From assembly GCA_964035545.1 (NCBI GenBank), contig OZ037765.1:21575504-21639503 (forward strand): a stretch of 64,000 nucleotides of DNA, read 5' to 3'. The first letter of the stretch is position 1. Each line of letters opens with the position of its first letter. Made by a program: the position numbers and the translations under genes. The notes under the pieces are model-generated. The model was not told the DNA's origin. It did not search any database and saw nothing but the letters and a program-made list of their open reading frames with translations. Of the stretch, positions 7,200-62,304 are shown piece after piece. Source of the DNA: Bugula neritina (lineage: Eukaryota; Animalia; Bryozoa).

Positions 7200-8264
7200 G
7201 TAATTACTAAGTCACAAAATCAGACTTGAGAATTATTATTATAACAATACTATCAATAATAGTATTACTATTACTGTTGAGTGTTGTCTATTACTCAGCA
7301 TTACCAATAGACAACACTCAACAGTAATAGTAATAGTATTAGTGATAGTTATATTTAGAGTTAGTGTTAACGCAAAATAAACTCTAACTATTGTGATAAC
7401 CAATTATTATCTAATATATTTATTAACACTCTAATTACGATTTGCAAGTAGTTCAAATAAGTCTTAAGTTCAAGGGCATTCTAAATGAGTAAGCGAAAAG
7501 AAAAAGCCAGAATCTAGAGGTCTTGAAACTTATCGATATGAACCTGAATATCAATGAGATATGTAAACTTTAAAGCAAAAACCCAAAGCAAATTTGTTTG
7601 TGTGATCATCATAATGATAATTATCATTAAACTTTATGATTAAATATACAGACTGAAACTAAAAAGTAAATTAAAATGAATATGAGTAATTGTAATACTA
7701 ATAACCATTAGCAATAATTTTACTTAAACTAAACCTAATACTTATATTAATGTTATACTTATACTCATACTAATCTCATACTGTTGCATATGCTGTTACT
7801 GTTAATGTTATATAGTTATACTATTACTTAAAGTTAGACTGCAACTGTAAGGCGTAAGCGTATACTATAAGAATATAGTGCACAGTAAGCGATTTAGATT
7901 GTTATGTTTATTGTGATTGTGATAGCAATACTAGCCTTACTACTAGTACTACTACTACTGCTAAGACTACTATTACTACTAGTGCCACTACTAGTAGTAA
8001 TAATATAAAATAAAAATTGCTACTACTACGTCTACTACTAGTACTAGTACTATTAGTAGTACTGGTAGTACTAGATTTAGTAATACTAATAGTAATACTA
8101 ATACTACTAATAGTAATAGTGATAATAATTAAGTTTAAGAATTATTAAAGTATTATTATAAATTACTACAATTATGATTATTTTATTTTCATCATAATCA
8201 TATTCATACTGATAATATAAATATTATTAATACTTCATATAAATTATTAAATAACTATAAGTAT
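7200..8264. repeat. TA-rich cryptic simple-repeat array (TAC/TAA/TAG/TAT triplets); continues at 15759-16010 beyond the retrotransposon
   Basis: Runs such as tactagtactactactactgctaagactactattactact and aatactaatagtaatacta, with many short palindromes. Confidence 0.85.
7263..7335. repeat. Perfect 30-bp inverted repeat with 13-nt spacer
   Basis: tattactattactgttgagtgttgtctatt (7263-7292) is the exact reverse complement of aatagacaacactcaacagtaatagtaata (7306-7335). Confidence 0.95.
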
Positions 8265-8568
8265 TGTTATAATTTTCAGATTAGGGTTGATATGCTATCC
8301 AGAGAGTCTATTTATCTAGTATAGAACTGCACCAGGCTAAGTCGAGTGAACGAGTATATTTTATTCACAACTATACATCATAAAAACACGATACATTATT
8401 TCTAACAAGTTACACATCTAATCTATTTCACACTCTAGCTTCGACTGAGTTAGCAGCGGGAACTACAATTGCTGCTAACTATCAACTACGCTAATTGGCT
8501 ATCCATTGTTCCGGGTCAATTACGCGACCCTACATGTTGTGCTGCTGGTAGTTCCACGAACCACCACA
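8265..8568 (-). repeat. 3' LTR
   Basis: Identical by eye to 15455-15758. Minus-strand AATAAA at 8360-8365. Confidence 0.98.
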
Positions 8569-8579: not shown

Positions 8580-8848
8580 AGCAGAAAGCCATCTTTCTGA
8601 TATATATATAAAAAAAACATTCAATAGTAATTGCATACATCAGTGGACAAAAATAATACATAATATACAGGAAGAGACATAATAATACACAGAGTCGTTA
8701 TAACGATCCGTTGCATACAATTGGCCAGCTGTAGATAGACGAGGAATACTAGCTAGCTGTGGTATTAGACAAGGAATAACCTGTCTAGCAGTTAAGCATT
8801 TGCACGAGTTTGGTTCATCACCAAATGTGGAGTATTCTGGGTAGCATA

Positions 8849-9636
8849 CTAGAGTCCTTGTTGGGCACGCCGGTGCTTGGCTTGGCATGTACGCAGTTTC
8901 CGTTTCATACGGCATACGGATCCCTTCAGCTGGAAGAGTCCTGTGGTAGTGTTGAGTAGATCTGGCGCCAGCTGGGTGAACTCTTCTTGTAATCGTAGGA
9001 GGCGTTCTTCTACTGTAGCTAGTCGTACTGGGTCTGGGGACGGTGTCCGTCTGCGGCGTAAGGGTGGACTGGGGGACCTGGTCCGTCTCTTCGCCGGGGT
9101 AGGGGAGATCTCTCCTTCTTCTGGATATGTAGTTTCCTCGGGGGTGTAGGTAATTGGAGGGCGGTCAGACACCAACGGGGATTGTTGGCGGGCGTTGTCT
9201 AACACACGTTGGAACCCCGAGGATAGAACGGCTAGTAGCATGGCCTTCTTTACCAGAGGTCGTATATATGTGAGGAACTCCGGGTACAGCTTGGCGTCGA
9301 CCACATAGTTTTCTCCAGGGAAACAGCCCGCCGCTCTGTGTCTGGTGACGGGGTAGGGGTACACATCATTGTACCCGCAGGGGCAGAAGGTCAGTAGGAG
9401 ATGAGCATTGACGTGTAGTTTAAGGGAGCGGTGAGAGGCGCAATCTTCACCACAGATCTGGCATCTCGTCCGTCCTCTGGACCCCCAGGCTGTTTCTATT
9501 TCTTCTTCGGTTTGTGGAGACACCCACCGCCAACGGCGGCGTAGTGGCTCAGGCCGGTCACCGCTAGCATAGTCCTCCGGATACGGAGCGGGAAGTGTTC
9601 TATCCCGTACCCTGGTTGTAGCGGGTCGAGTGTAAT
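8849..9636 (-). CDS. Retrotransposon ORF3, major exon: C2H2 + C2HC zinc fingers, Arg/Ser-Pro-rich segment, C-terminal coiled coil; not an envelope protein
   Basis: Open frame of about 262 codons with CQICGEDCASHRSLKLHVNAH (C-x2-C-x12-H-x3-H) and CPCGYNDVYPYPVTRHRAAGC. It is preceded by a TACTAAC branch point (9656-9662) and a TTTTTCAG acceptor. Confidence 0.85.
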
Positions 9637-9900
9637 CTGAAAAAGTTTCAACAGTGTTAGTACAGTACACTGCTGTGTTGTCAGCTTGAGCAGCTTGGCA
9701 ACTCCTAATTCAGTTACCTCGTAGAGATTAATGATAGTGAATAGTCAGATAGAACCGTATTGCAATGAGATTATAAAAATCTCTAAGTCAAACTGAGTTC
9801 TTACTACGGTATTTCACTAACCTATCTCCAGCTCGATTGACTCAGTGAGTCGGAGCTGAGCGATGCAATCTAGTTTCGTATTAAGATATAGTTAACTCAC

Positions 9901-9926
9901 CCCACGATCTGTTGTCGTAAGACATA
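9901..9926 (-). CDS. Candidate 26-nt mini-exon supplying the ORF3 start codon (MSYDNRSW)
   Basis: Minus strand reads tttcacatattcag|T ATG TCT TAC GAC AAC AGA TCG TGG G|gtgagt. The phase-1 donor matches the phase-1 acceptor at 9636. Confidence 0.6.
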
Positions 9927-9949
9927 CTGAATATGTGAAATGGTTTGAA

Positions 9950-12900
9950 CTACTGCTTAGAAACACGTCTACTCTTGACTGCATCAGCGTATGAAAAGAT
10001 CGAGCAACGTGGTTGGGGTGCGTGATTAAGACTTTGCGCACCCGGCGGATGAATTTTGTTTCTACTTCCGCCGATACAAAAGTTGATATTTCCGTGGTGT
10101 TGACAACTTCCACATTTGCTCGATTCTTTTCTCGTACGGTTTTCCCCTAGACTTTCATGTGTGCCGCTTTTAACGCAGTCACATACAAAGTCCTTCAAGT
10201 ATGCGGGGGGTTGCCTCGTACGCTGTCCCCTTTCTAGGGGGGGTGACACGCTTGCCGGTTCGTTAGTAGGGGCCTCTAATGGCGTCTCTACTTCACCGTC
10301 AGCAGCCACCTCTTCTTGTTCTCCGGATGGAGCCCCTCCCTCCGTGGGGGTTTGCACTTCCGGAACCGGCTCGGTTTCTGGAAGTGATGGAATTAGACTT
10401 GGCGGTGGCGGACACGCTTCTGTTGACAAAAGCTGCCGCTCCTCTCTCACCAAGTTTTCTTCCCGCGGTATGACCACTTCGTATTCAGGTCCATGCCGCC
10501 GTCGCCCGCGCGTTGTTGTCTGCCTCCTGGGCTCTAACAACGGGGGGGCTTCTCCCACTCCGCCGGGGCTAGCCCAATACGGTTTCAAGCGAGACTCATT
10601 CTGGATAGACACCTGTCCTGAGCGCTCAATCTTGTACGTATGATTGGGCATAGCCTCGACGACCACGTAGGGGCCTACGAACTTAGGCTTCAGCTTATCA
10701 GCCTGTCCGCGGCGCCTACGGTAATTGACCATCCACACCTTATCTCCTCTTTGATAGAGGGGTGGTTCATCGGAATCTTCGTGCCGCACCTTCCACTGCT
10801 GTTGACGCAGTATCTCGTGTGCGGCCTTCATCCGTTCCACTAGTTCACTGGCATACTCGTGGACTGAGTTATCTTGCTCTGGAACGTGATAGGTGAGATG
10901 GTCAGGGACACGAGTCTCTCTCCCGAGCATCAAGAGGTTTGGGGTCTCACCAGTACTGGTGTGTGGGGTGCTACGGTATGCACGCATGACTTGCGGCAAC
11001 ACCGTATCCCATTCCTCTTGACCTCGTCCAAGGAGGAGACTCCGGAGCGCATCACCTAGCATCCGGTTGTTGCGCTCCACCACCCCGTTACCTTGAGGGT
11101 GGTAGGGGGTGGTCCTGCTCTGATTTACTCCCCAGAGGTGGCAAAGGTCGCTCATCAGTTGGGACTGGAATTGAGCGCCTTGATCAGAGTGTATCTGTTC
11201 GGGAAGCCCAAAATAACAGAATACGTGTTGGTCTAGTGCCCTGGCCACTGTTGGGGCTGATGCATCTGGGATAGCCAGAGCATCCGCCCACCTAGTAAAG
11301 TGGTCGGTTAGTACTAGGATCCAATTATTGCCTCTGGGGGTCAGGGGCATGGGTCCGACCAGGTCTACAGCGACTACTTGCCAGGGCCTACCAGCGTATA
11401 GCCTCCGCCGTCCTGCTTCACCAGGGGGGCGGCTATGCTTACTGGCCTGGCAGATCTCACACTGTTTGACTCTGAGCCGGACGTCACGCTCCATCTGCGG
11501 CCAATACCACCGGAGTCGTAATTTGGACATCACTCGCTTGACCCCTGCGTGGGCCTGCTTGTGAGTATCCCAAATCAACTCACGGCGGATGGCTGTGGGG
11601 CAGACTACCCTCTTCCTTTCCGGGTGTCTGCCGCTGGCAGCTAGAGAGATGGTTAGTAACCCATCCTGCCCGATCTGCAGCGAGTCCCAACGCTGACAGT
11701 ATAGCCGGAACTCGGCGCATCCCTGTCTTATGCGTTCCTCGCTGGGTCGTCGCCCTTCCCTTTTGGCTCGGTAGATGTCTGCCACGACTCCAGGCAGCTC
11801 TTCTTGGAGCTTCTTCAGCTCTCGAACATTACCGGCCAGTACAGGGTTGGCGCGGAGGTTTTGTACATCCTCCGGGGACTCATCAACTCTTTGCCTGAGT
11901 TGACCTTGATCCCAGTCAAACGGTGCTCCGTGATGAGCCAGCGTCCCCAACTCGCATCGTGGGGGACCTCCATCCCTCCTCTCGATGTTGAGACACTGTT
12001 TGCAACCTCCGTCAGGTCGGCGACTCATCCCATCCGCATTGCTGTGTCTCTTGCCCGGTCGGTGTTCGATCCGGTACGAGAATTCAGCTAGGATTTCGAG
12101 CCACCGGGCGACCTGACTAGAGGGCTCTGCTCTCCTGCACAACCAGATCAGCGAGGCATGATCCGTACGCAGCCGGAACTTCCTGCCATATAGGTATGGT
12201 CTGGAGTGCTTCACTGACTTGATTACTGCCAGCAGCTCCTTGCGGGTAGTGCAGTAATTTCGTTCAGCGGGAGAGAGAGACTTGCTGTAGTAGGCTACTA
12301 CTACCTCTCGGCCTTCCTGCACTTGCGACAGCACAGCGCCAACATTCTGGTCACTGGCGTCCGTGTCTAGGATGTACTCCAGAGTGGGGTCTGGGTAGGC
12401 CAAGATGGGCGCCGTTAGGAGGCAGCCCTTGAGGCGGTCGAACGCTTCTTGTTCGACTAGAGTCCACTGCCACGTCACTCCCTTTGCGGTAAGCCGGTTT
12501 AACGGCTGGGCTATGCCCGCAAAGTCTGGTATGTATTGCCTGTAATACCCTACCAGCCCCAAGAAAGCCCGGAGTCCGGTCAAGTCTTGAGGGGTGACCC
12601 AGTCTTCTACTGCCCGTACCTTTTCGGGATCCGTTGCCACGCCGTTTCGACCGACAACGTGCCCCAGGTACTTGACCTCCGGCTGCAACAGAGCGCACTT
12701 GGAAGGTTTGAGCTTAAGACCGGCACCTCGGAGTCTCTCGAAAACCTCCTGCAGACGACTGACATGTGTCTCGAAGTCTGGAGAGATTACGATGACATCA
12801 TCGAGGTAGACCAGCAGTGTCTTCCAATGGAGTCCGCTAAGGACTTGTTCCATCAACCTCTGGAAGGTGGCTGGGGCGGAGGTTAACCCGAAGGGCAGCA

Positions 12901-14581
12901 CCTTCCACTTCCACAAACCGTCCCGTGTGATAAACGCCGCTTTCTCCTGGGCGTCGGGACTCAGAGGAACCTGCCAATAGCCGCTTAGCAAGTCTAACGT
13001 ACTGAAGTACTTGCTGCCGGCTAGGGCGTCCAATGACTCGTCAATACGAGGTAGAGGGTAGGCGTCCTGTATGGTTACGCTATTGAGTTTGCGGTAGTCC
13101 ACACAGAACCGCCAACTGCCGTCTTTCTTCCGGACCAGTACGACTGGCGAGCTCCACGCACTATGGGCGGGCTCTATCAGTCCCCGGTCCAGAAGATCCC
13201 GTACTTGTCGGCTAACCTCCTTCTCTTTCTCCGGCCCCAGCCTGCGTGTGGGCTGCCGGACAGGGACTGTCCCTGCAGTCAGCGGTATTTCGTGTCTGAC
13301 AATTCCAGTCAGTCCCACGTCATGCTCTCCGCTGCTGAACACATCACCGTAGTCGCGTAGTAACTTGGCCATAGCCTGGCGCTCTCTGTTACTCGCGCAG
13401 CCGTTACTGGCCGTCTCGTATAACTCCCGGAGATGTGTTGGGACTGCCCCTCGTCCCTGAATAGGGTGTCGAGGGAGTGCCTCTGTCGCATCACCCAGCG
13501 ACGGGCCTACGTCTCCCTCTTGAACAGAGTGAAAACGGCCCAGCATCGACCCAGCCGGGAGCTTGATAGGCTCGGTAAAGGGGTTGACGCACTGCACTAA
13601 GATCTCCCCTTGCTCAGTCAGCTGGTTCAGACTGCTGGCAAGTTGGATCTTTTCGTGCGCGCCTTCAACCACCCCGAGTCCAGAGATCCGGCTACTATTC
13701 ACCCTGCAGTGAATGGTAGCCCGGGAGCGGCCTGGTATGGTACGGTTGCGTACCACTTGCACACCTCCCACTAAAGGGCAGCCGAACTTGTCGACGCAGG
13801 CGAGTTCCCGCCCGGACATCATCATTGCAGATCTGCTAAAATCTATGTGACATCCGTGCCGTTTAAGGAACGGCATCCCGAGGATAGCATCCTCCTTGAG
13901 CTGACTGACGATGAACGTCTCTTGGATCGTTTGATCGCGGACTCGTCCCGTCAGCTCAATTATACCATAGAAGGGAAGGCACGACCCGTCAGCTAGGGTG
14001 CCGTATTCCCCTTCGTATGCTTCCATCTCGCCCCTGACCCTAGCGCTGAGGGTGTCGAAAAGTTGGCGGCTTAAGAGGTTTGTGGTACAGCCCGAATCAA
14101 TGAGAAAAGTAACAGCTTTGCCTTCCAGTTTACCGGGCAAGAAATAGCTGTTCCCATGGGGCTGCACCTGAACTCTCCCTTCAGGCCTTACTCTCGCAGG
14201 GAGTACCTCCCTCGCTTTGGGTCGCGAAGGAGGTCTCTTGGGGCGGTGATGGGTAGGCCTCGGGGGTGCCGAGGCTAGATCCTCAGCTACCTTTGTGTGC
14301 TCCCATCCAGATTCTTGGACTTGCAGCCCTGTGAATCTGTTGTGAAGGGGCATAGAAAAGGCAGCCGCGGGGCGAAGCCCCTTGCTGGTCCGTCGTGGCT
14401 GTTGCCACTGTTGGTTGCCAGTACGCGGTACCCGTCTGGGTGACCTGCGTTTCTTCTTCCCTAGAGGTTTCATCGTCGGCCCGCGGAAGGTGGGAACATC
14501 TGCGGGCCGCGGTAGTTTAACCCCTGATTTAGGAAGGGACAATATCGGCGGAAGTGTCCTTGATTTCCGCACTCCCAGCAA
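9950..14581 (-). CDS. pol: Pol polyprotein (aspartic protease, reverse transcriptase, RNase H, integrase), probably expressed as Gag-Pol by -1 frameshift near 14515
   Basis: Motifs FLIDSGC (PR), WRFCVDYRKLN / LPFGL / YLDD (RT), LDTDAS...ELLAV (RH), H-x3-H...CEIC and VDLVGP...HSDQG...VERNNR (IN). 1543 uninterrupted codons. Confidence 0.98.
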   Translation of the reverse strand: MLGVRKSRTLPPILSLPKSGVKLPRPADVPTFRGPTMKPLGKKKRRSPRRVPRTGNQQWQQPRRTSKGLRPAAAFSMPLHNRFTGLQVQESGWEHTKVAEDLASAPPRPTHHRPKRPPSRPKAREVLPARVRPEGRVQVQPHGNSYFLPGKLEGKAVTFLIDSGCTTNLLSRQLFDTLSARVRGEMEAYEGEYGTLADGSCLPFYGIIELTGRVRDQTIQETFIVSQLKEDAILGMPFLKRHGCHIDFSRSAMMMSGRELACVDKFGCPLVGGVQVVRNRTIPGRSRATIHCRVNSSRISGLGVVEGAHEKIQLASSLNQLTEQGEILVQCVNPFTEPIKLPAGSMLGRFHSVQEGDVGPSLGDATEALPRHPIQGRGAVPTHLRELYETASNGCASNRERQAMAKLLRDYGDVFSSGEHDVGLTGIVRHEIPLTAGTVPVRQPTRRLGPEKEKEVSRQVRDLLDRGLIEPAHSAWSSPVVLVRKKDGSWRFCVDYRKLNSVTIQDAYPLPRIDESLDALAGSKYFSTLDLLSGYWQVPLSPDAQEKAAFITRDGLWKWKVLPFGLTSAPATFQRLMEQVLSGLHWKTLLVYLDDVIVISPDFETHVSRLQEVFERLRGAGLKLKPSKCALLQPEVKYLGHVVGRNGVATDPEKVRAVEDWVTPQDLTGLRAFLGLVGYYRQYIPDFAGIAQPLNRLTAKGVTWQWTLVEQEAFDRLKGCLLTAPILAYPDPTLEYILDTDASDQNVGAVLSQVQEGREVVVAYYSKSLSPAERNYCTTRKELLAVIKSVKHSRPYLYGRKFRLRTDHASLIWLCRRAEPSSQVARWLEILAEFSYRIEHRPGKRHSNADGMSRRPDGGCKQCLNIERRDGGPPRCELGTLAHHGAPFDWDQGQLRQRVDESPEDVQNLRANPVLAGNVRELKKLQEELPGVVADIYRAKREGRRPSEERIRQGCAEFRLYCQRWDSLQIGQDGLLTISLAASGRHPERKRVVCPTAIRRELIWDTHKQAHAGVKRVMSKLRLRWYWPQMERDVRLRVKQCEICQASKHSRPPGEAGRRRLYAGRPWQVVAVDLVGPMPLTPRGNNWILVLTDHFTRWADALAIPDASAPTVARALDQHVFCYFGLPEQIHSDQGAQFQSQLMSDLCHLWGVNQSRTTPYHPQGNGVVERNNRMLGDALRSLLLGRGQEEWDTVLPQVMRAYRSTPHTSTGETPNLLMLGRETRVPDHLTYHVPEQDNSVHEYASELVERMKAAHEILRQQQWKVRHEDSDEPPLYQRGDKVWMVNYRRRRGQADKLKPKFVGPYVVVEAMPNHTYKIERSGQVSIQNESRLKPYWASPGGVGEAPPLLEPRRQTTTRGRRRHGPEYEVVIPREENLVREERQLLSTEACPPPPSLIPSLPETEPVPEVQTPTEGGAPSGEQEEVAADGEVETPLEAPTNEPASVSPPLERGQRTRQPPAYLKDFVCDCVKSGTHESLGENRTRKESSKCGSCQHHGNINFCIGGSRNKIHPPGAQSLNHAPQPRCSIFSYADAVKSRRVSKQ
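14457..14521 (-). other. Predicted -1 ribosomal frameshift signal (G_UUA_AAC plus stem-loop/pseudoknot)
   Basis: Slippery heptamer in the gag frame at 14515-14521, 6-nt spacer, stem GGCCCGC/GCGGGCC, and loop UUCCC complementary to a downstream GGGAA. Pol is in the -1 frame. Confidence 0.8.
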
Positions 14582-15423
14582 AAACTGACTGTTTCTCCCT
14601 GTGGCGGCGCCGATGGCCGCATGGGCTCAGGGGCGGTACTCACTGGGTTTTGTGGTGTCAGTGTTGCTATCAGCTTGGCTAGCATGTCCGTCAGTTGAGT
14701 GACTTTTGATGCCGTCGCCAACTGGGACACGGCAGCCGCGGCGGGGGTTTCCTCCCCTTGTCCCGCGGCCGTGTCTGCGCGGTCTATCTCCACTTGGCGG
14801 GAGCTTCCGCGACTTTTATGCATTTGGTTAGCTAGGAGGTAAGCTTCCCCCTCAGTCAGAGCATCTTCAACGGTGGTGACTCCCCTAGCTAGAAACTGGT
14901 GGTGGAGACCCAGATCGTCGACAGATGCTATGAAAGCGTCGAGGGTGTACCTCTCGCGGTTGACTGGGGGCAAGTCGCTGTACGCGATCTGTGCCAGCTT
15001 CATGACCGCGGCGGCATGCTCCCGCAGCGGGGTGCGGGGATCACGCCGCAACCTCTGTAATCGGGCCCTGGCATCTGTAGCCGAGAGGCCAAAGCGGGCC
15101 CGCAGAGAAGCAAAGATATTATCAATGTCTACGCCCAGCCCATAGGGCTTGGCTTTGTCCATCAATGCCATTCTAAGCTTCAGCAGGGCCACCCTAGGGG
15201 GCCACTGAGCGACGTCCATTACGTCGCTAAACTCTTGAATAAATTGTTCCACCTCCTCTTCACCCGTGAAGGTGGGCGCCTTTAACCTGTAGCGGTCTTC
15301 GGCTAGTTCTCGCGGAACCCTTCGCTCTTCTACTACATGGTTAACAGGCATTGTCTCTACAGCATTGTCTCTACGCTCACCTTCGATTGCCGGTGGTTGA
15401 ATTTCAGCATTGTCAGTCTCCAT
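14470..15423 (-). CDS. gag: Gag (317 aa) with one CCHC zinc knuckle
   Basis: ATG lies just downstream of the PBS. APTFTGEEEVEQFIQEF...W is a capsid-like motif and CWECGNQGHFRRYC is the knuckle. Confidence 0.95.
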   Translation of the reverse strand: METDNAEIQPPAIEGERRDNAVETMPVNHVVEERRVPRELAEDRYRLKAPTFTGEEEVEQFIQEFSDVMDVAQWPPRVALLKLRMALMDKAKPYGLGVDIDNIFASLRARFGLSATDARARLQRLRRDPRTPLREHAAAVMKLAQIAYSDLPPVNRERYTLDAFIASVDDLGLHHQFLARGVTTVEDALTEGEAYLLANQMHKSRGSSRQVEIDRADTAAGQGEETPAAAAVSQLATASKVTQLTDMLAKLIATLTPQNPVSTAPEPMRPSAPPQGETVSFCWECGNQGHFRRYCPFLNQGLNYRGPQMFPPSAGRR

Positions 15424-15435
15424 CTTGGATGCACT

Positions 15436-15453
15436 ATCCCACCGCTGCCACCA
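15436..15453 (-). other. Primer-binding site complementary to the 3' end of tRNA-Leu
   Basis: Minus-strand TGGTGGCAGCGGTGGGAT lies one nt from the 5' LTR. Its complement ATCCCACCGCTGCCA+CCA is the 3' end of animal tRNA-Leu(AAG-type). Confidence 0.88.
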
Positions 15454-15454
15454 C

Positions 15455-15758
15455 TGTTATAATTTTCAGATTAGGGTTGATATGCTATCCAGAGAGTCTA
15501 TTTATCTAGTATAGAACTGCACCAGGCTAAGTCGAGTGAACGAGTATATTTTATTCACAACTATACATCATAAAAACACGATACATTATTTCTAACAAGT
15601 TACACATCTAATCTATTTCACACTCTAGCTTCGACTGAGTTAGCAGCGGGAACTACAATTGCTGCTAACTATCAACTACGCTAATTGGCTATCCATTGTT
15701 CCGGGTCAATTACGCGACCCTACATGTTGTGCTGCTGGTAGTTCCACGAACCACCACA
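15455..15758 (-). repeat. 5' LTR
   Basis: 304-bp copy identical by eye to 8265-8568. Confidence 0.98.
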
Positions 15759-16799
15759 GTATCACTATTACTATAAGTATTACTATTACTATTAGTATTA
15801 GTATTACTATTACTTATAATTTAGTATAAGTATAACATTAACTGTTGAGTATAACTATAAGTATAATAATAATGTTATCATTATGATTAAGTTTAACTAT
15901 AACTTATATTTATAAATATAACTATAAGTCTATAACAGTTATACTATAAGTACTATAAGTATAAGGAGATAATACTTGTATGTGTACTAATATTTCGATT
16001 TGGCTATTGTCATTCAATTAAAAATAGCTCCCATGGTTATCTTGATGATTATGCATTATATTTATTATCATACCATAAGATAAGTGCATAAGTATGAATG
16101 CAGCAGAAGGAGAAGCAAAAACTGACATCATTTAAACTTCGGTGTGCTAAAATATCTCTATTTTTTCTCCCATTATATTTGAGGTTTCAACATAAAAGCT
16201 GCAGCACGGACCTCATTGTGTTAGCGAGTCAAACAAATTTTCTTATGTAATCCTTAACCCATAATCTTATTGAGCATTCTTGACTACAAGACATAATGTA
16301 TTGAAAAATTATATTACCAAAGTCGTAAATAGAGTTTGTACCTCGATCACAGGCTGTACTCCGCGAAAACCGACGTGCAGTAATTCCATCAATGGACGTG
16401 AACGTGGGGTGTTTTGATATTATCATTAGTCACTTAGTGATTATGAAGATAATCACTAACCGCTGAACTGGAGTAAACTGTTTTATTTCAGTGCAGAGAA
16501 CAGGACCAAATCAACATAACATATCATAATGGTTCATTTCAGTTTGCTATTTCAGTATTACTATTTGCCTTGAGTCTTAACAAATAATAATATTGAAATA
16601 ACTTACAGTTACTCTTAGCCCTTAGGCCTGTGAGTGTGGCACTGGCTGAGTGGCTGTGGTCATGGAGTAGCTCTGTAGACGTTGTGAGGTTTTTTAAGTT
16701 TAAGCCTAACAGTAACTTTAAGTGCAAGTTGAAGCCGTGCTCAGCTGATGCTGTAGTGTTACTGTTGCACTTACTTAGTTTATTTGGTAAAATTTGAAA

Positions 16800-32018: not shown

Positions 32019-35000
32019 ATGGATTCTGCTAACGAAGAAGAAACTCAACCAAATCCTCATTCTGGTAAGATTAATTGGCAGTTTTCATTTTGAAATATCG
32101 ATTTACGTTTCACACCAAACATTTGATTGCAAAACAGTATCATACTCTAATTTCAGGGTAAATTAAAATACCCAATGCTGAAATAGGTCAATGGCGACCT
32201 GAAAGATTATTTTGTATGTCAAGCAATGACACCAAAACTCAAATTTGTCAATGCTATGGGGTTAGTAGCATCTACTGCTCACCGTATGATTGACAAGTAT
32301 AAATGGCAGTTTTAGTACTAATTGTAGTTTTAGCGTTGCCCAAGTAATAATAATAATAATTTTTTGACTTAAACTTGAAGTAGTTGAACATCAACATGAA
32401 TACTGAAAGTGAATAGTCATACTCATAGTCATAGTCATAGTGATAGTCATAGTGAACTTGCACTTGCAGTCTTCAAGTTGATGTTCAACTAGTACTACTA
32501 GGACTTCAACTATTGACAGTGACTATTACTATTACTATTAGTACTAGTATTAGTTGAAGGCATCCGTGTTCTTGTTGTTATCACTATGCTATTCTTATTC
32601 TAATACTTGTATTCGCACTTATACTTATACTTATAGTTATAGTAATACTATAGCTATAGTAATACTAATAGTTATATTCATATTGATTATTCTCATTTAT
32701 AGTAATTCTTATTTACATTATGATTACTTATTAGTATTACTATTAACGTATTAGTGTTACTACTAGTACTAGTAATGCTTATACTTATTGCATTTCGGAA
32801 TTGCCCGTTTACTGTTTAGGCCATTAATAAAAATAATGAGTATGACTATGACTAACTCCAAGTATAATGCTTAAAAGAGCAGTAATTGGAGTCTTGTAAT
32901 AATATTTGTATTAAAAATTAAAGAATAAATTTACTATTCATAATTTTTTCAGTCCTATTATAATTATATAATATCATTATGTTCTATGCAACTGTTGGTT
33001 GGCATCCTGCGTAATTGTTTAGCGTGCCTGCTTGCCAGCCAGAGGTCTGGTTCGAATTCCGGTGGGGGCAATTATTTTACAAGCTATTTCGGCTTTGTCT
33101 TGTGGAAGTACTCTCAGGGAGTTGACTGGCGAGTTGAGCCCATAAACTGACAGAGTACGTGGGGGCCAGTGCAGTTCTGGAGAGAACTGGGTGGAATGTT
33201 GTTTGGTATCCCAAAGCCCCTGTAGCGTAATTGGTTAGTGCACCTGCTTGCAAGCCGGAGGTCTGTGATTCGAATCCCAGTAGGGGCAATTATTTTACAG
33301 CAACTGATCAACCTATTCTTTTGAATTGTCATAAAATGCCTGAACTTGTTGTTTATATTTTCGTTAGAGTCCCAGGTTCTCGATGGAGATAATGAGCAAA
33401 TTACGTTTGTTGAAGCATCTGTCGCACCCAGCAATGTAGACCTGACTACAAATTTCCTTCAAGTCACCAGAGCCACCATCTCTGAAACTATTGCTGGAGA
33501 GGATGGAACTTCAACAAATGTTCAGGAGATCATACCATCAGCCAACAGTTTATCTCCGACAGTTACTATAACTGAACACACATTCACTTCAAATAATGTT
33601 CTGGGGGTAGAGCCGTCTACAGTTCAGTCAGAAGAACGATGCTTGGTCTGTAGTGATAAGGCTTCCGGTCTCCATTATGGTGTTCTAGCTTGTGAAGGGT
33701 GCAAGGTGTGGACAAAATTTGAATATCAAATTTTCAGTTCATGTTATCTATGAAAATTGATTTGTTTAAGTCTCATAATAAGAGCATTAGGTATATTTGC
33801 CCTATCCAAGTTATGTGCACACCAACAATTTTGAGTCATCTTTTTTATTTAGGGTTTCTTCCGACGAGCCTTGCAAGACATTGGAGACCCGTCTAGGCGG
33901 AGATGTTATTACAATAAAAATTGTGAAATCACCATTTCTAGCAGAAACAGGTGCCAGTTTTGTCGACTTCAGAAATGCTTAGCTCTTGGCATGTCCAGAG
34001 GAGGTAAATTTACACTTCCATCAGAATCTATTCAGTTGACTTCAAATGAACCAGATTTTAGATATAAAATTGTACTATTGTATATTCTGATTGTAGCTGC
34101 CAAGCTGGGACGGAGATCAAGGAAAATGAAGGCTACGATAGCAGATGCTTGTAAGTCTATAGAAGATACACAAACTGCCCAAGCATTACACGGGTTACTC
34201 AGTTTGAAAGCAGAAAACCATGGGGGTGTCATAACTTTCACTCCTACAACAGCATCAGTGGATGTTAGTTCGTTCCCTGCAACCCAGACGTCTAATGTAT
34301 CGTTAGATATGGGTGACATTACATTTTCTTCCCTTGCACACTCTACTAGTCTACCAACTACTAGTCAAACTGACACTTTGTCTGCTTCTAAAGTAACCAG
34401 TCTGTCTTTACCCGCTGCCAGTACTTCAGTGGCTACCGGCTCTGCAGACGATGACGATGACGATCAACAAGTTGGACAAGAAAACCCATCAGATTCTGAT
34501 GTTTTCAAACACATGATGGACAGACTGGCTCAAGCTCGAGTCTGTAACAGTGAAGTGTTCAATGTAAGTTGTTGATTTTATCACAAATTAAAGTATCTAG
34601 ACGGGGTGCCTTAAACTTTTGCTGTTTCATATAGCTTAGTTTGTGAAGTACGTACTGCTTGCTGCAAAAACAATCTCTCATAGGCCTCTGCTAGATGTCA
34701 ATTTTGACTGAAGAAAAAGATTCACTCTTGAAATTTATTTAAGTAATTGATGTGCAACAGAAATTTTCTTCAAGTTTTTTATCATTTCTGCTAGATCTTT
34801 GTAAGTTTAACAGATCATGCTTGTTAGCTCGAATGAATATCTTTCTAGTGGCGATACTTAAAATTGACTAGCATCATTTTTACTGGATAGTTGCAACACA
34901 CTGTACTTTTAGAATTGAAAAATAATAGCAAGTAGTAATTAGAAGTTATTGATAATTTTGAAAACGAGCACAAAGTTTTAGAAACTAGAATAATAGTTAG

Positions 35001-37288
35001 ACCAGTTATAGCGAGAGGTTAAGTCGGATAGTTGTTGGAAGAAGGAAAATTCAAAAGTGCTTAAAAATTTGTTGATGAATAATTTTGTTCCTAAATTCAG
35101 TTTTAACTTTCATATTACGGTACTTTTGGAAAGGTTGTGTGAATTCATTTTATTAGCATTTAATATATTTTTATGGTGATGTTGTACACTGTTACATAGA
35201 GGAATCGTAACCGCCTGAAAAACTCGGAACAGAAGAAAAATAAAATGACACAGAGACAAGCAGATACTATTAGTTTGCTCAAGATATCGCACTTGGCGGG
35301 TATTGAGGGTGCGTCTGGCTCTGGAACCAAATTCCTGATTGTCAACTCGAACAAACTGCCTTTGAACCAACAGGTATGTTGGTGTGTTGTGGAATCAATA
35401 AACTCATATTTCGAAAACAATAGTACTCAACTAAGCAATAAACTGATGTTCTACGGTTAATATTCCGCTAACCTCCATGTTTAAAAAGATCAAGCCTCTG
35501 TGCTTTATACTGACAAAAGTCAACTTAGTTTTTTCAGGTTTAGTCGTCAATGGTTGACATCTAAATTTCTAAAGAAATGACAAAGCTGATGTGACTGTAT
35601 TAAAAGTGCTCACTCACTAGCTATATGTATGTTTTAGCTTTGGTAGATTGAATGCTGTTTTTCCTTGGGTTACCAATGTGCAGTAGTGTTGATTGTATGT
35701 TATGTGTTTTAGACGTACATCACAACACCTTCCGGTGAAGTTATTGACATGTCAAATGTGCAGATTATCAATGCTACTGCTGCTACTCCTATCAGAGTTT
35801 CAAACTCATCATCTAATAAAATAATAATACCTAATTCGGGCATGTCTAGTGGCACGTCTAACTCTATACTCATACACGGTGCTGCCTCAGCCACTGAGAA
35901 GTTAGCACCTTCAGCTGACAGCTCACTGAATGCTGGGGAACACGCAATCTACAGAAGCCCCTTGAAGAAGCGACCTTATAGAGAACCAGATCTTATAGAA
36001 GATGGACACATGAAGAGAGTCCATCTTGATGACAATGACGTTGTATTGGAACAGCACCAGGTGGTGCTGGTAGATAGTGGTGAGCAGCACGCTACGGATG
36101 TGCAAGCTGTTAACATGGCCGACGTGGCTACTACTGTGTACGATGCCTATATAGACACAGTTCAGTTCACATTCAACAACACTATGACTATGCGACAGAA
36201 TATAACTGAAAAGTTAGTATGTCCGACTTCGTCGACTCATCTCCCTGATCATCTGGCGGCAGCATGCTGGAAGGCATACGAAACTCGGTCTAATGAAGCC
36301 ATCACTGATGTCGTGAATTTTGCTAAGCGAATTCCGGGTTTTCCAGCTCTAGAAACCGATGATCAGATTATTCTTATCAAAGGAGGCTCATTTGAGGTTA
36401 GTTTCTACTCTTCATGATGTTTAATCTAATCACTATTTAAAACATTGGTCTGCTATGTATCATCAAGTCTGGAATTGTAGCTTATTTTTTACTCTTACTA
36501 GTCTGTACCCTTTAATAAGCAATTTCACTTCAGTAAGGTGCATATGGATGTCTGTTTAATGTTGTCACCCTTTAAAATATGTATATTGTATCTGCTATTT
36601 TATTACAGGTGGCCTGTGTGATGCAGGCCTCATTTGTTGATTCTGACAGAGAAATCATGCTACTGAGTGGTATAGATGCTGCGTACACCAAACAGCAACT
36701 ACGCAACAGTTTTCTGATGGGCGCTACTTTTGTTGATCTGCTGTTCAATTTTGCTTCTCGGTTCAGCAGTTTTCACTTGACGGACGTAGAGACAGCTCTG
36801 TTCTGTGCGCTGATGCTGATTCGCCCTGGTAAGCATCCTATTTCTCTGTAATTTGTGAGCCGTGCTGGGCATTGTCTATAAGTTATTCTAACTATAGAAA
36901 TGAGTTTTTTTATAAATTTAAATGATGTTTAAATTGTTTTGATGCTATATTAAAACTAAAAATCTTCACCTTGTTATGAGACACCCATTTACTAATTCTA
37001 ATGGTACAATTGTACATTTTTCAAAGAAATGAAGTTGTGCTTTCAGATAGAGGTGGGTTGACCAACAGGGAGAAAGTGAACAAACTGCAAGAGATACTTA
37101 TACAGGCTTTACAGAACCAAATTGACATTAACCACAGATCTGAATCAGGGTTGTTTCCTAAAGTACTAATGATGGTGTCTAATCTTCGAGAATTAAATGG
37201 TGAACAACGTAGAATGCTAAATAATTTAAAAGGTCAGATAGAATTTTCTGAAGGACTTCTGGCTGAGATATTTGATTTGGCAGATTAA
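32019..37288 (+). CDS. Nuclear receptor, subfamily 1 (NR1CDEF/E75/ROR-related orphan), 8 coding exons
   Basis: Exons 32019-32064, 33368-33705, 33853-34003, 34097-34563, 35200-35373, 35713-36396, 36609-36828 and 37047-37288. DBD: [27 protein letters not shown]...[22 protein letters not shown] signature: [22 protein letters not shown]-terminus: LLAEIFD. Confidence 0.93.
32290..32980. repeat. TA-rich cryptic simple-repeat array in receptor intron 1, including an imperfect inverted repeat (32381-32413 / 32459-32491)
   Basis: Runs of (agtcat)n, (acttat)n and tagtactagta. tagttgaacatcaacatgaatactg pairs with cagtcttcaagttgatgttcaacta. Confidence 0.85.
32994..33296 (+). repeat. Repeat carrying two tandem tRNA-like modules (about 33006-33070 degenerate; 33216-33288 near-complete cloverleaf), each followed by attatttt
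   Basis: GCCCCTG...TAGGGGCA acceptor stem, D-arm TAGCGTAATTGGTTAGTGC, CCTGC-TTGCAA-GCCGG arm with a 6-nt loop, and T-loop TTCGAATC. Confidence 0.7.
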
Positions 37289-37656: not shown

Positions 37657-61596
<23,940 letters not shown>

Positions 61597-62304
61597 TTTC
61601 ACAGTTGCTGGTTAATCATTGCCACTAATAATCCTTAAAGTATAAAACAGCAAACAAAGTAGTAGAGTGGTACAGAAGGTTCGATTAGAATGGTGGTTGA
61701 GGCGTGAGTGAATAAGAAACAATACAGCATTGGAATATGTCCACATACCATGAAACCACGACCCATGAAAAATACCATAGCAACGGTTTAATAGCACAGA
61801 AATAAACGGATTTGAAGCAAACAGTAATTAATCATCCCACACTCAGTCTGATGTGCCGTATTAAGCGCATAGAATGATTACCACGCTGATCTGTACAGTT
61901 GGTGGATACATGTTTCAAGAAATTAACTAAAAGTAGTTATATTGTGACTAGAAATTTATTTCGATTACTCATTAATCCAACAAAAAACACTTCCACATAT
62001 CAAAAGCTGTTCTGATACACATCTGGCAAAACTATCCAAATATGTATTTGCCATAGAATAAACTGACATTATGATAATCTGTACAGTCTAGATAAGACAC
62101 TAGATAGATAAGACAACAAAGTTAGAAAAAATATAGAAAATTTTGTCAACTTCAATTTGCAAATTGCAAAAAAACAATAATGTTTCTGATACATTGAAAA
62201 AATTACAAAGTGTATAAGTTAAATTGAGTAAGCATATAAAATTATAGAGAGAAATATATGTAACTGAGCCAAGCACATCCTGACACGTCTCCTTCTCACA
62301 TTGG

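Follow-up and report, generated by a model that had tools for sequence, protein, structure and literature searches.

A Ty3/gypsy element of the bryozoan Bugula neritina with a conserved third gene that probably takes its start codon from gag by splicing

We analysed a 64,000-nucleotide stretch of the Bugula neritina genome (contig OZ037765.1 of assembly GCA_964035545.1, positions 21,575,504 to 21,639,503; "the window"). At 15758-8265, on the minus strand, it contains an intact young retrotransposon with long terminal repeats (LTRs), of the Ty3/gypsy type (Metaviridae). Behind gag and pol, the usual place for a viral envelope gene, this element has a third open reading frame (ORF3), which, by comparison of sequences, is a real, conserved gene. 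The best explanation for the data as a whole is probably that ORF3 is not an envelope (env) gene, that it obtains its start by splicing from gag, that it has a second start exon, and that it encodes a regulator protein. We propose that, in a spliced LTR transcript, codons 1-14 of gag would be joined to ORF3, which would thereby gain a start codon. A second form would start at a conserved ATG just behind pol and use the splice 9901>9636. For the 5' end of this second form, leaky scanning or an internal promoter in the pol tail seems more likely than an efficient double splice like that of tax from human T-lymphotropic virus (HTLV). The predicted product is a dimerising zinc-finger protein, which likely works in the nucleus and targets DNA or RNA of the element itself. 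We directly observed the splice sites, their phases, their conservation in the family, and one joined protein in a sister subfamily.

ORF3 and the gag leader

The ORF3 coding exon (8849..9636, minus strand) has 261 codons after an Asp codon that is split at the acceptor, and it ends in TAG at 8851-8849. No in-frame Met occurs before residue 132 (of 261). A homologue search gave 72 matches at 46-88% identity, including the window's own (71 others), and there are 102 ORF3 representatives at 50% clustering. Similarity begins at the split Asp. (In 20 homologues that read through the acceptor, the residues across it are S-D in 15, S-G in 2, L-D in 2, and V-G in 1, which is probably misaligned; with the window and the protein P0024, described below, this alignment has 22 sequences.) All 20 are compatible with an AG at the acceptor, which is a weak test by itself. 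Of the ORF3 variants listed from a DNA-like sequencing run (X2; 40 of its 205 variants were listed), five of six are synonymous. An earlier note on this DNA had claimed that ORF3 is a real gene, and the 71 close homologues, with homology from the acceptor onward, bear this out. No related locus for the ORF3 alignment was confirmed in metagenome or viral contigs, and the prokaryote genomes searched held no relatives of gag. The primer-binding-site pattern had no matches in viral contigs and matched 13 metagenome loci, none of them related by tblastn.

All of the motifs, phases, and lengths that the earlier note had described were located on the minus strand, exactly as it had them. The gag ATG is at 15423. 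After 43 coding nucleotides (nt), in phase 1, comes donor A, GAAG/GTGAGC (the slash marks the splice point; the GT is at 15380-15379), so that the coding part of exon A (15381..15423) holds gag codons 1-14 plus 1 nt. At the other end, a TACTAAC branch motif (9662-9656) is followed by the ORF3 acceptor, TTTTTCAG/AT, with the exon starting at 9636. Mini-exon B (9901..9926, minus strand) has 26 nt: its ATG is at 9925, 24 nt past the pol stop and in pol's frame, and eight codons plus 1 nt lead to donor B, TGGG/GTGAGT (phase 1; GT at 9900-9899). The mini-exon's acceptor AG (9928-9927) is less certain than the other sites. The predicted products, 276 amino acids (aa) from donor A and 270 from donor B, were reproduced.

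Three of these sites also stand out by score. By a donor matrix, donors A and B rank 1 and 2 among the 430 GT sites of the element; by an ad hoc score for acceptors, that of ORF3 ranks 1 among its 284 YAG sites, but that of the mini-exon only 21. When the 347-nt spacer was resampled 20,000 times with a Markov model, TACTAAC with a T-tract and a YAG acceptor arose by chance in 0.09% of trials, and a phase-1 mini-exon with an ATG arose in 5.4%; both patterns were defined after the sequence had been seen. (TACTAAC occurs four times in the element.)

The join from the gag leader to ORF3 (15381>9636) is supported by P0024, a database protein from a sister subfamily. P0024 has 14 Gag residues and then runs directly into ORF3 from the predicted Asp. 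Its leader is identical (14/14) to the Gag start of a relative, P0127. Both the number of codons and the join point match the prediction in the earlier note, though in another subfamily. P0024 is encoded on one 5,320-nt contig, and it is the sole joined form among the 171 ORF3 homologues that were scored (score 73; the next is 35). Most simply, P0024 would represent a spliced RNA that was retrotransposed or assembled.

The gag leaders themselves provide further support. The codons for E-G-E spell a donor of the GAAG/GTGAG type, so their conservation supports donor A. They are the best-kept columns of the leader, being present in 49, 45, and 51 of 53 leaders; the flanking columns are 30-55% kept, save two at 75-79%. 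(The 53 are those with a recognisable Met start among the 120 gag homologues listed, and they were anchored by position.) E-G-E is at codon 14 in one gag group and at codon 10 in another, with leader lengths of 14 and 10. Together, P0024 and the E-G-E codons make the gag-donor route well supported by sequence comparison, and we expect that the window copy would be spliced in this way.

A second start exon behind pol

To the mini-exon, we compared the tails of 106 pol homologues, of which 47 reach a conserved tail motif and 19 run at least 24 residues beyond it. (The motif, F-S-Y-A-D-A-V-K-x-R-R, is at the extreme C-terminus of pol, at 9960-10010 on the minus strand, after a long variable linker.) Among the 19 long tails, 17 end at residue 30 in R/G/K-stop, where donor B is expected. 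These 17 have an ATG-compatible pair at residues 22-23 and a G-T-R-A donor exactly 25 nt after it. The other two are frameshifted and have Met plus 7 residues, then G-K or S-K. The ATG follows the motif's Tyr codon by 64 nt in the sister tails and by 66 nt in the window. Another 28 tails stop early, like the window's, and are uninformative. At the level of proteins, this suggests that the ATG, the length, and the phase-1 donor of the mini-exon, as first described for the window, are conserved in the sister subfamily. In P0312 and 16 other sister tails, the pol stop codon is apparently part of donor B, and the mini-exon apparently overlaps the C-terminus of pol in another frame.

Intron B (9637..9900, minus strand; 264 nt, with a T-tract and AG at 9638-9637) is non-coding yet conserved. 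P0025 reads through the whole intron and is homologous to it (z 19.8 versus 60 shuffles), and the upstream read-throughs of P0025, P0029, and P0048 have DNA-level homology to it (z 16-21). By extrapolation, the GTG-Ser start of P0025 falls at 9898, just 2 nt away from donor B. From these comparisons, the start exon appears to be real and the splice 9901>9636 is likely. At about 9828-9857 (minus strand), the intron also has a nested hairpin that encloses TGAGTCA, which we take to be an AP-1-like motif; the hairpin region is conserved in the read-through of a distant relative and may be a splicing or promoter element. We considered whether donor B pairs back with this hairpin and rejected the idea: such pairing is absent from the minimum-energy folds.

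The earlier note had proposed both singly and doubly spliced mRNAs. The join 15381>9636 is supported and 9901>9636 is likely, but the tax-like junction 15381>9926 is not established. In a doubly spliced RNA, 43 + 26 = 69 nt would precede the ORF3 acceptor, which puts the gag AUG out of frame with ORF3. This AUG has a strong context (A at -3, G at +4) and would open a 69-aa upstream ORF that overlaps ORF3, so ORF3 would need leaky scanning. There is no good donor upstream of the gag AUG (the best scores 1.7, versus 6.4). In a Tax/Rex-type arrangement the middle exon holds the first usable AUG; here the stronger gag AUG lies upstream of it. The small exon does resemble that arrangement in its conserved ATG, phase, and donor, as judged from proteins. 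In the sister subfamily the matching acceptor apparently decodes as GAG, not YAG (from two reading frames), and no branch-like motif was found 12-45 nt upstream of the mini-exon.

The out-of-frame gag AUG, the lack of a donor before it, and the GAG acceptor favour an internal start over a double splice. We give slightly less than an even chance to transcription of the second RNA from an internal promoter inside the pol tail. It is doubtful, but possible, that one LTR transcript yields a singly spliced mRNA (15381>9636) and a doubly spliced one (15381>9926 and 9901>9636) that both make ORF3. In the window, the mini-exon does have a YAG acceptor (the one ranked 21 of 284), which is unchanged in X2 copies at 2% or more. 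Also, the mini-exon ATG has A at -3, and this ATG, the length, and the donor are conserved. The strong upstream AUG with its overlapping 69-aa frame, the GAG of the sister subfamily, and the missing branch motif all argue against this double splice. We think it quite unlikely that the mini-exon is a switch, whose inclusion in the gag-donor RNA would shift the frame and leave ORF3 off or at a leaky-scanned level. The frame arithmetic and the conserved non-coding intron with its hairpin would fit a switch. But a pure poison exon would have no need for the conserved ATG, which is in phase with ORF3, or for changes in the mini-exon's frame to be mostly synonymous (2 of 3). An internal promoter is still the explanation we favour for the 5' end of the second RNA.

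The ORF3 protein and alternative explanations

The core domain of ORF3 (9182..9556, minus strand) has a C2H2 finger (C58, C61, H74, H78) and a CxC...H...C unit (C84, C86, H99, C104), wrapped in helices. The eight Cys and His ligands are 85-98% conserved. The first finger fits C-x2-C-x12-H-x3-H, and the family profile matches SALL3 (E 3e-6); the window's ORF3 protein alone is below the Pfam cut-off for C2H2. AlphaFold2 folds the 134-residue core with a predicted local distance difference test score (pLDDT) of 94 and a predicted template modelling score (pTM) of 0.86. Against solved C2H2 arrays, the finger pair aligns over about 50 residues with Z of only 3.0-3.6, which is weak. Searches of PDB and BFVD with the core fold found nothing at E<=0.001, and no match reached Z>=5, which does not imply a new fold. 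The fold of the whole ORF3 is of low confidence (pLDDT 59.5) and had no Foldseek match. In ESM Atlas, all leads were under 0.9, and most were C2H2 clusters. Towards the C-terminus there is a predicted, conserved coiled coil (8873..9022, minus strand) of seven heptads, with almost all a/d positions hydrophobic and a basic tail at the end; the predicted helix spans residues 202-260. The window's ORF3 also has an SP/RS-rich basic stretch. From this anatomy, the product is predicted to be a dimerising, zinc-binding, nuclear, regulatory protein.

We also considered whether ORF3 is an Env protein and rejected this on hydropathy. ORF3 has no transmembrane stretch (the best 19-residue value is 1.24), and just 1 of 40 close homologues reaches 1.9. 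The gag leader is acidic, as judged by eye, and unlike a signal peptide. For ORF3 (261 aa, with a zinc-finger core), Pfam, PDB, and BFVD gave nothing at E<=0.001, neither a viral fusion protein nor anything else.

ORF3 has relatives among bryozoan host proteins: XP_067940964.1 and XP_067944745.1 from Watersipora and KAF6040923.1 from Bugula, which are annotated but uncharacterised gene models. Of 10 distant clusters that were looked up, 3 carry names, and all of these are bryozoan gene models, uncharacterised or of C2H2 type. P0215, P0303, and P0246 (two of which are bryozoan host gene models) have two copies of the finger domain each, and two of the three have a C-terminal helix that resembles a coiled coil. 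The two-finger core of P0215 is 33% identical to ORF3 (E 1e-26). It is possible, from this similarity, that these proteins are the source or the domesticated descendants of ORF3.

If ORF3 is a functional protein, it might act on DNA, on RNA, or in the particle, and we rank regulation at the DNA level somewhat above an RNA or particle role. ORF3 could be a cofactor for the particle or for RNA packaging (an oligomeric RNA chaperone or a Rev-like exporter): the coiled coil with its basic tail, the SP/RS-rich stretch, and the N-terminus in common with Gag would suit such a role. But in structure, the finger pair mostly resembles C2H2 arrays that bind DNA (weakly, with Z 3.6 at best), and the host relatives carry the finger domain twice, some with the C-terminal helix, like nuclear factors. 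We consider a cofactor role unlikely, though worth keeping in mind. It is very improbable that ORF3 is an unexpressed passenger, a captured host fragment whose splice motifs are coincidental. The 5.4% of resampled spacers with the mini-exon pattern and the lack of a junction in RNA would be expected of a passenger, but the family-wide zinc ligands and heptads, the joined P0024, the synonymous bias, and the top-ranked sites largely refute it.

Several observations weigh against our preferred explanation, a non-env regulator gene with two start exons. No junction was seen in reads. The RNA run X1 (share 0.18) has no cover at either site; its 17 contigs over the element include none over 9570-9975, and such low cover is uninformative. 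For the DNA-like run X2, the joints listed (15 of 23) include no such junction either. None of the 171 ORF3 homologues is a protein joined to the mini-exon. P0024 is a single protein sequence and could instead reflect a deletion at an AG microhomology or an assembly chimera. Also, in 13 of the 20 homologues that read through the acceptor, a Met lies in frame three codons ahead of the Asp, so a subfamily with that Met might start locally and need no borrowed ATG. (This Met is missing from the window and from seven other read-through sequences.) Conservation in the sister group was read from proteins, not DNA, and the sequences compared are kin, not independent events. The functional reading draws on domain anatomy alone.

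The earlier note had also suggested checking whether the splice sites are conserved among copies of the element, and in part they are. Over 406 nt, 15 substitutions are listed for X2: the intron has 11, the mini-exon has 3 (of which 2 are synonymous), and ORF3 has 1. All 15 spare the splice dinucleotides, the branch motif, and the ATG. But one diverged X2 copy (2 contigs) lacks the GT of donor B, which is a further point against the second start exon.

The element, its surroundings, and known systems

The element is 7,494 nt long and GC-rich, within AT-rich animal DNA. As expected for Ty3/gypsy, it has direct LTRs with TG...CA ends, a target duplication, and a primer-binding site, and gag is followed by pol domains in the order protease, reverse transcriptase, RNase H, integrase (Pfam). 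The 5' LTR (15455..15758, 304 nt, AATAAA at 15555) and the 3' LTR (8265..8568, preceded by a G-rich tract) are identical (304/304), and the 4-nt target duplication is ATAC (15759-15762 and 8261-8264); this identity and duplication indicate a young insertion. The primer-binding site (15436..15453) directly follows the 5' LTR and is presumably of the tRNA-Leu type. gag (14470..15423) encodes 317 aa with one CCHC knuckle and has 129 homologues. The pol ORF (9950..14626, stop to stop) ends in an SH3-like C-terminus. It overlaps gag in the -1 frame, and because of this frame and a GC-rich hairpin (-15.9 kcal/mol) after G TTA AAC, a -1 frameshift signal is likely at 14478..14521. A spacer of about 310 nt separates pol from ORF3, which ends at 8849. 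(All of these features are on the minus strand.) A 174-codon frame (8640-9164, minus strand) overlaps the end of ORF3 and the 3' untranslated region and has no Pfam match. There is no second copy of the element in the window.

Elsewhere in the window, a host gene for a nuclear hormone receptor, with zf-C4 and a ligand-binding domain, has exons at 33325-36417 (plus strand). A 315-codon frame at 60664-61611 (minus strand), with a signal-peptide-like start and no Pfam match, probably belongs, as one large exon, to a gene for a secreted or surface protein. At 7249-7349, in AT-rich DNA, a 44-nt inverted repeat that is near-perfect and has a 13-nt loop is possibly a small foldback element.

In errantiviruses, which are also Ty3/gypsy elements with a third ORF behind pol, env-F is expressed from subgenomic RNAs and starts from an upstream exon: the idefix subclade splices from within gag, and env of ZAM and Beagle starts from a short peptide exon (PMC12992720). 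The errantivirus cargo is a membrane fusion protein, whereas here it is a zinc-finger protein. Also, one upstream exon is described per subclade, with the short exon before gag, whereas our element has two conserved ATG-bearing exons, one of them behind pol. In avian leukosis virus, env shares the first six Gag residues via a donor inside gag (PMC8220723); here 14 are shared, and 10 would be expected in one group of relatives. That virus is a retrovirus whose leader feeds a signal peptide, whereas our leader is acidic and ORF3 lacks any hydrophobic segment. So the splicing strategy is already known, from errantiviruses and avian env, and in the literature we searched, we did not find the zinc-finger cargo.

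Other elements resemble ours in having a third gene that is not env. Bdelloid LTR retrotransposons have ORF3s of other kinds (GDSL, DEDDy, coiled-coil, transmembrane), typically from spliced messages (PMC5408684); the words zinc and finger are absent from that paper. In Grande (gene23) and Boty, an additional conserved gene lies after pol and before the 3' LTR; its product is nuclear and was proposed to work like a retroviral accessory factor, and Grande uses its own promoter (PMC7264820). These extra ORFs are antisense and in plant or fungal elements, whereas ORF3 is sense and in an animal. We found no zinc-finger ORF3, and no pair of conserved start exons, for an animal gypsy element in the literature, though supplements and Repbase-type annotations may hold such cases; passages of PMC13524379, PMC8220671, PMC8556966, PMC12440569, and 10.1101/2025.03.14.642691 had no zinc-finger ORF3. 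In animal LTR retrotransposons, a third ORF is usually assumed to be env, or is overlooked, and because its ATG is on another exon, the present ORF3 is called from a wrong internal start. For a conserved accessory gene that is not env, our analysis provides exact junctions that can be tested. It also defines an unannotated two-zinc-finger domain that is common to ORF3 and to bryozoan host genes, some of which have two copies and a C-terminal helix.

The HTLV regulatory genes tax and rex are next to the 3' LTR and are expressed from spliced RNAs, with the tax ATG coming from a middle exon. Foamy viruses are similar in having regulatory genes, Tas and Bet, beside the 3' LTR and expressed from spliced RNAs, and their internal promoter (PMC13220597) is a model for the 5' end of our second RNA. 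Both are complex retroviruses, and we found no link in sequence or fold between their proteins and ORF3. By analogy, we tentatively raise the possibility, which we do not consider the likely one, that this animal Ty3/gypsy lineage is "complex" in the way that foamy viruses and HTLV are: it would have captured a so far undescribed zinc-finger/coiled-coil regulator that either governs transcription of the element itself or works against silencing by the host. Its two N-terminal isoforms would come from two conserved start exons, one in the LTR/gag leader and one served by an internal promoter behind pol. The case of ORF3 suggests that accessory genes of the regulator type, with alternative start exons, occur beyond the complex retroviruses.

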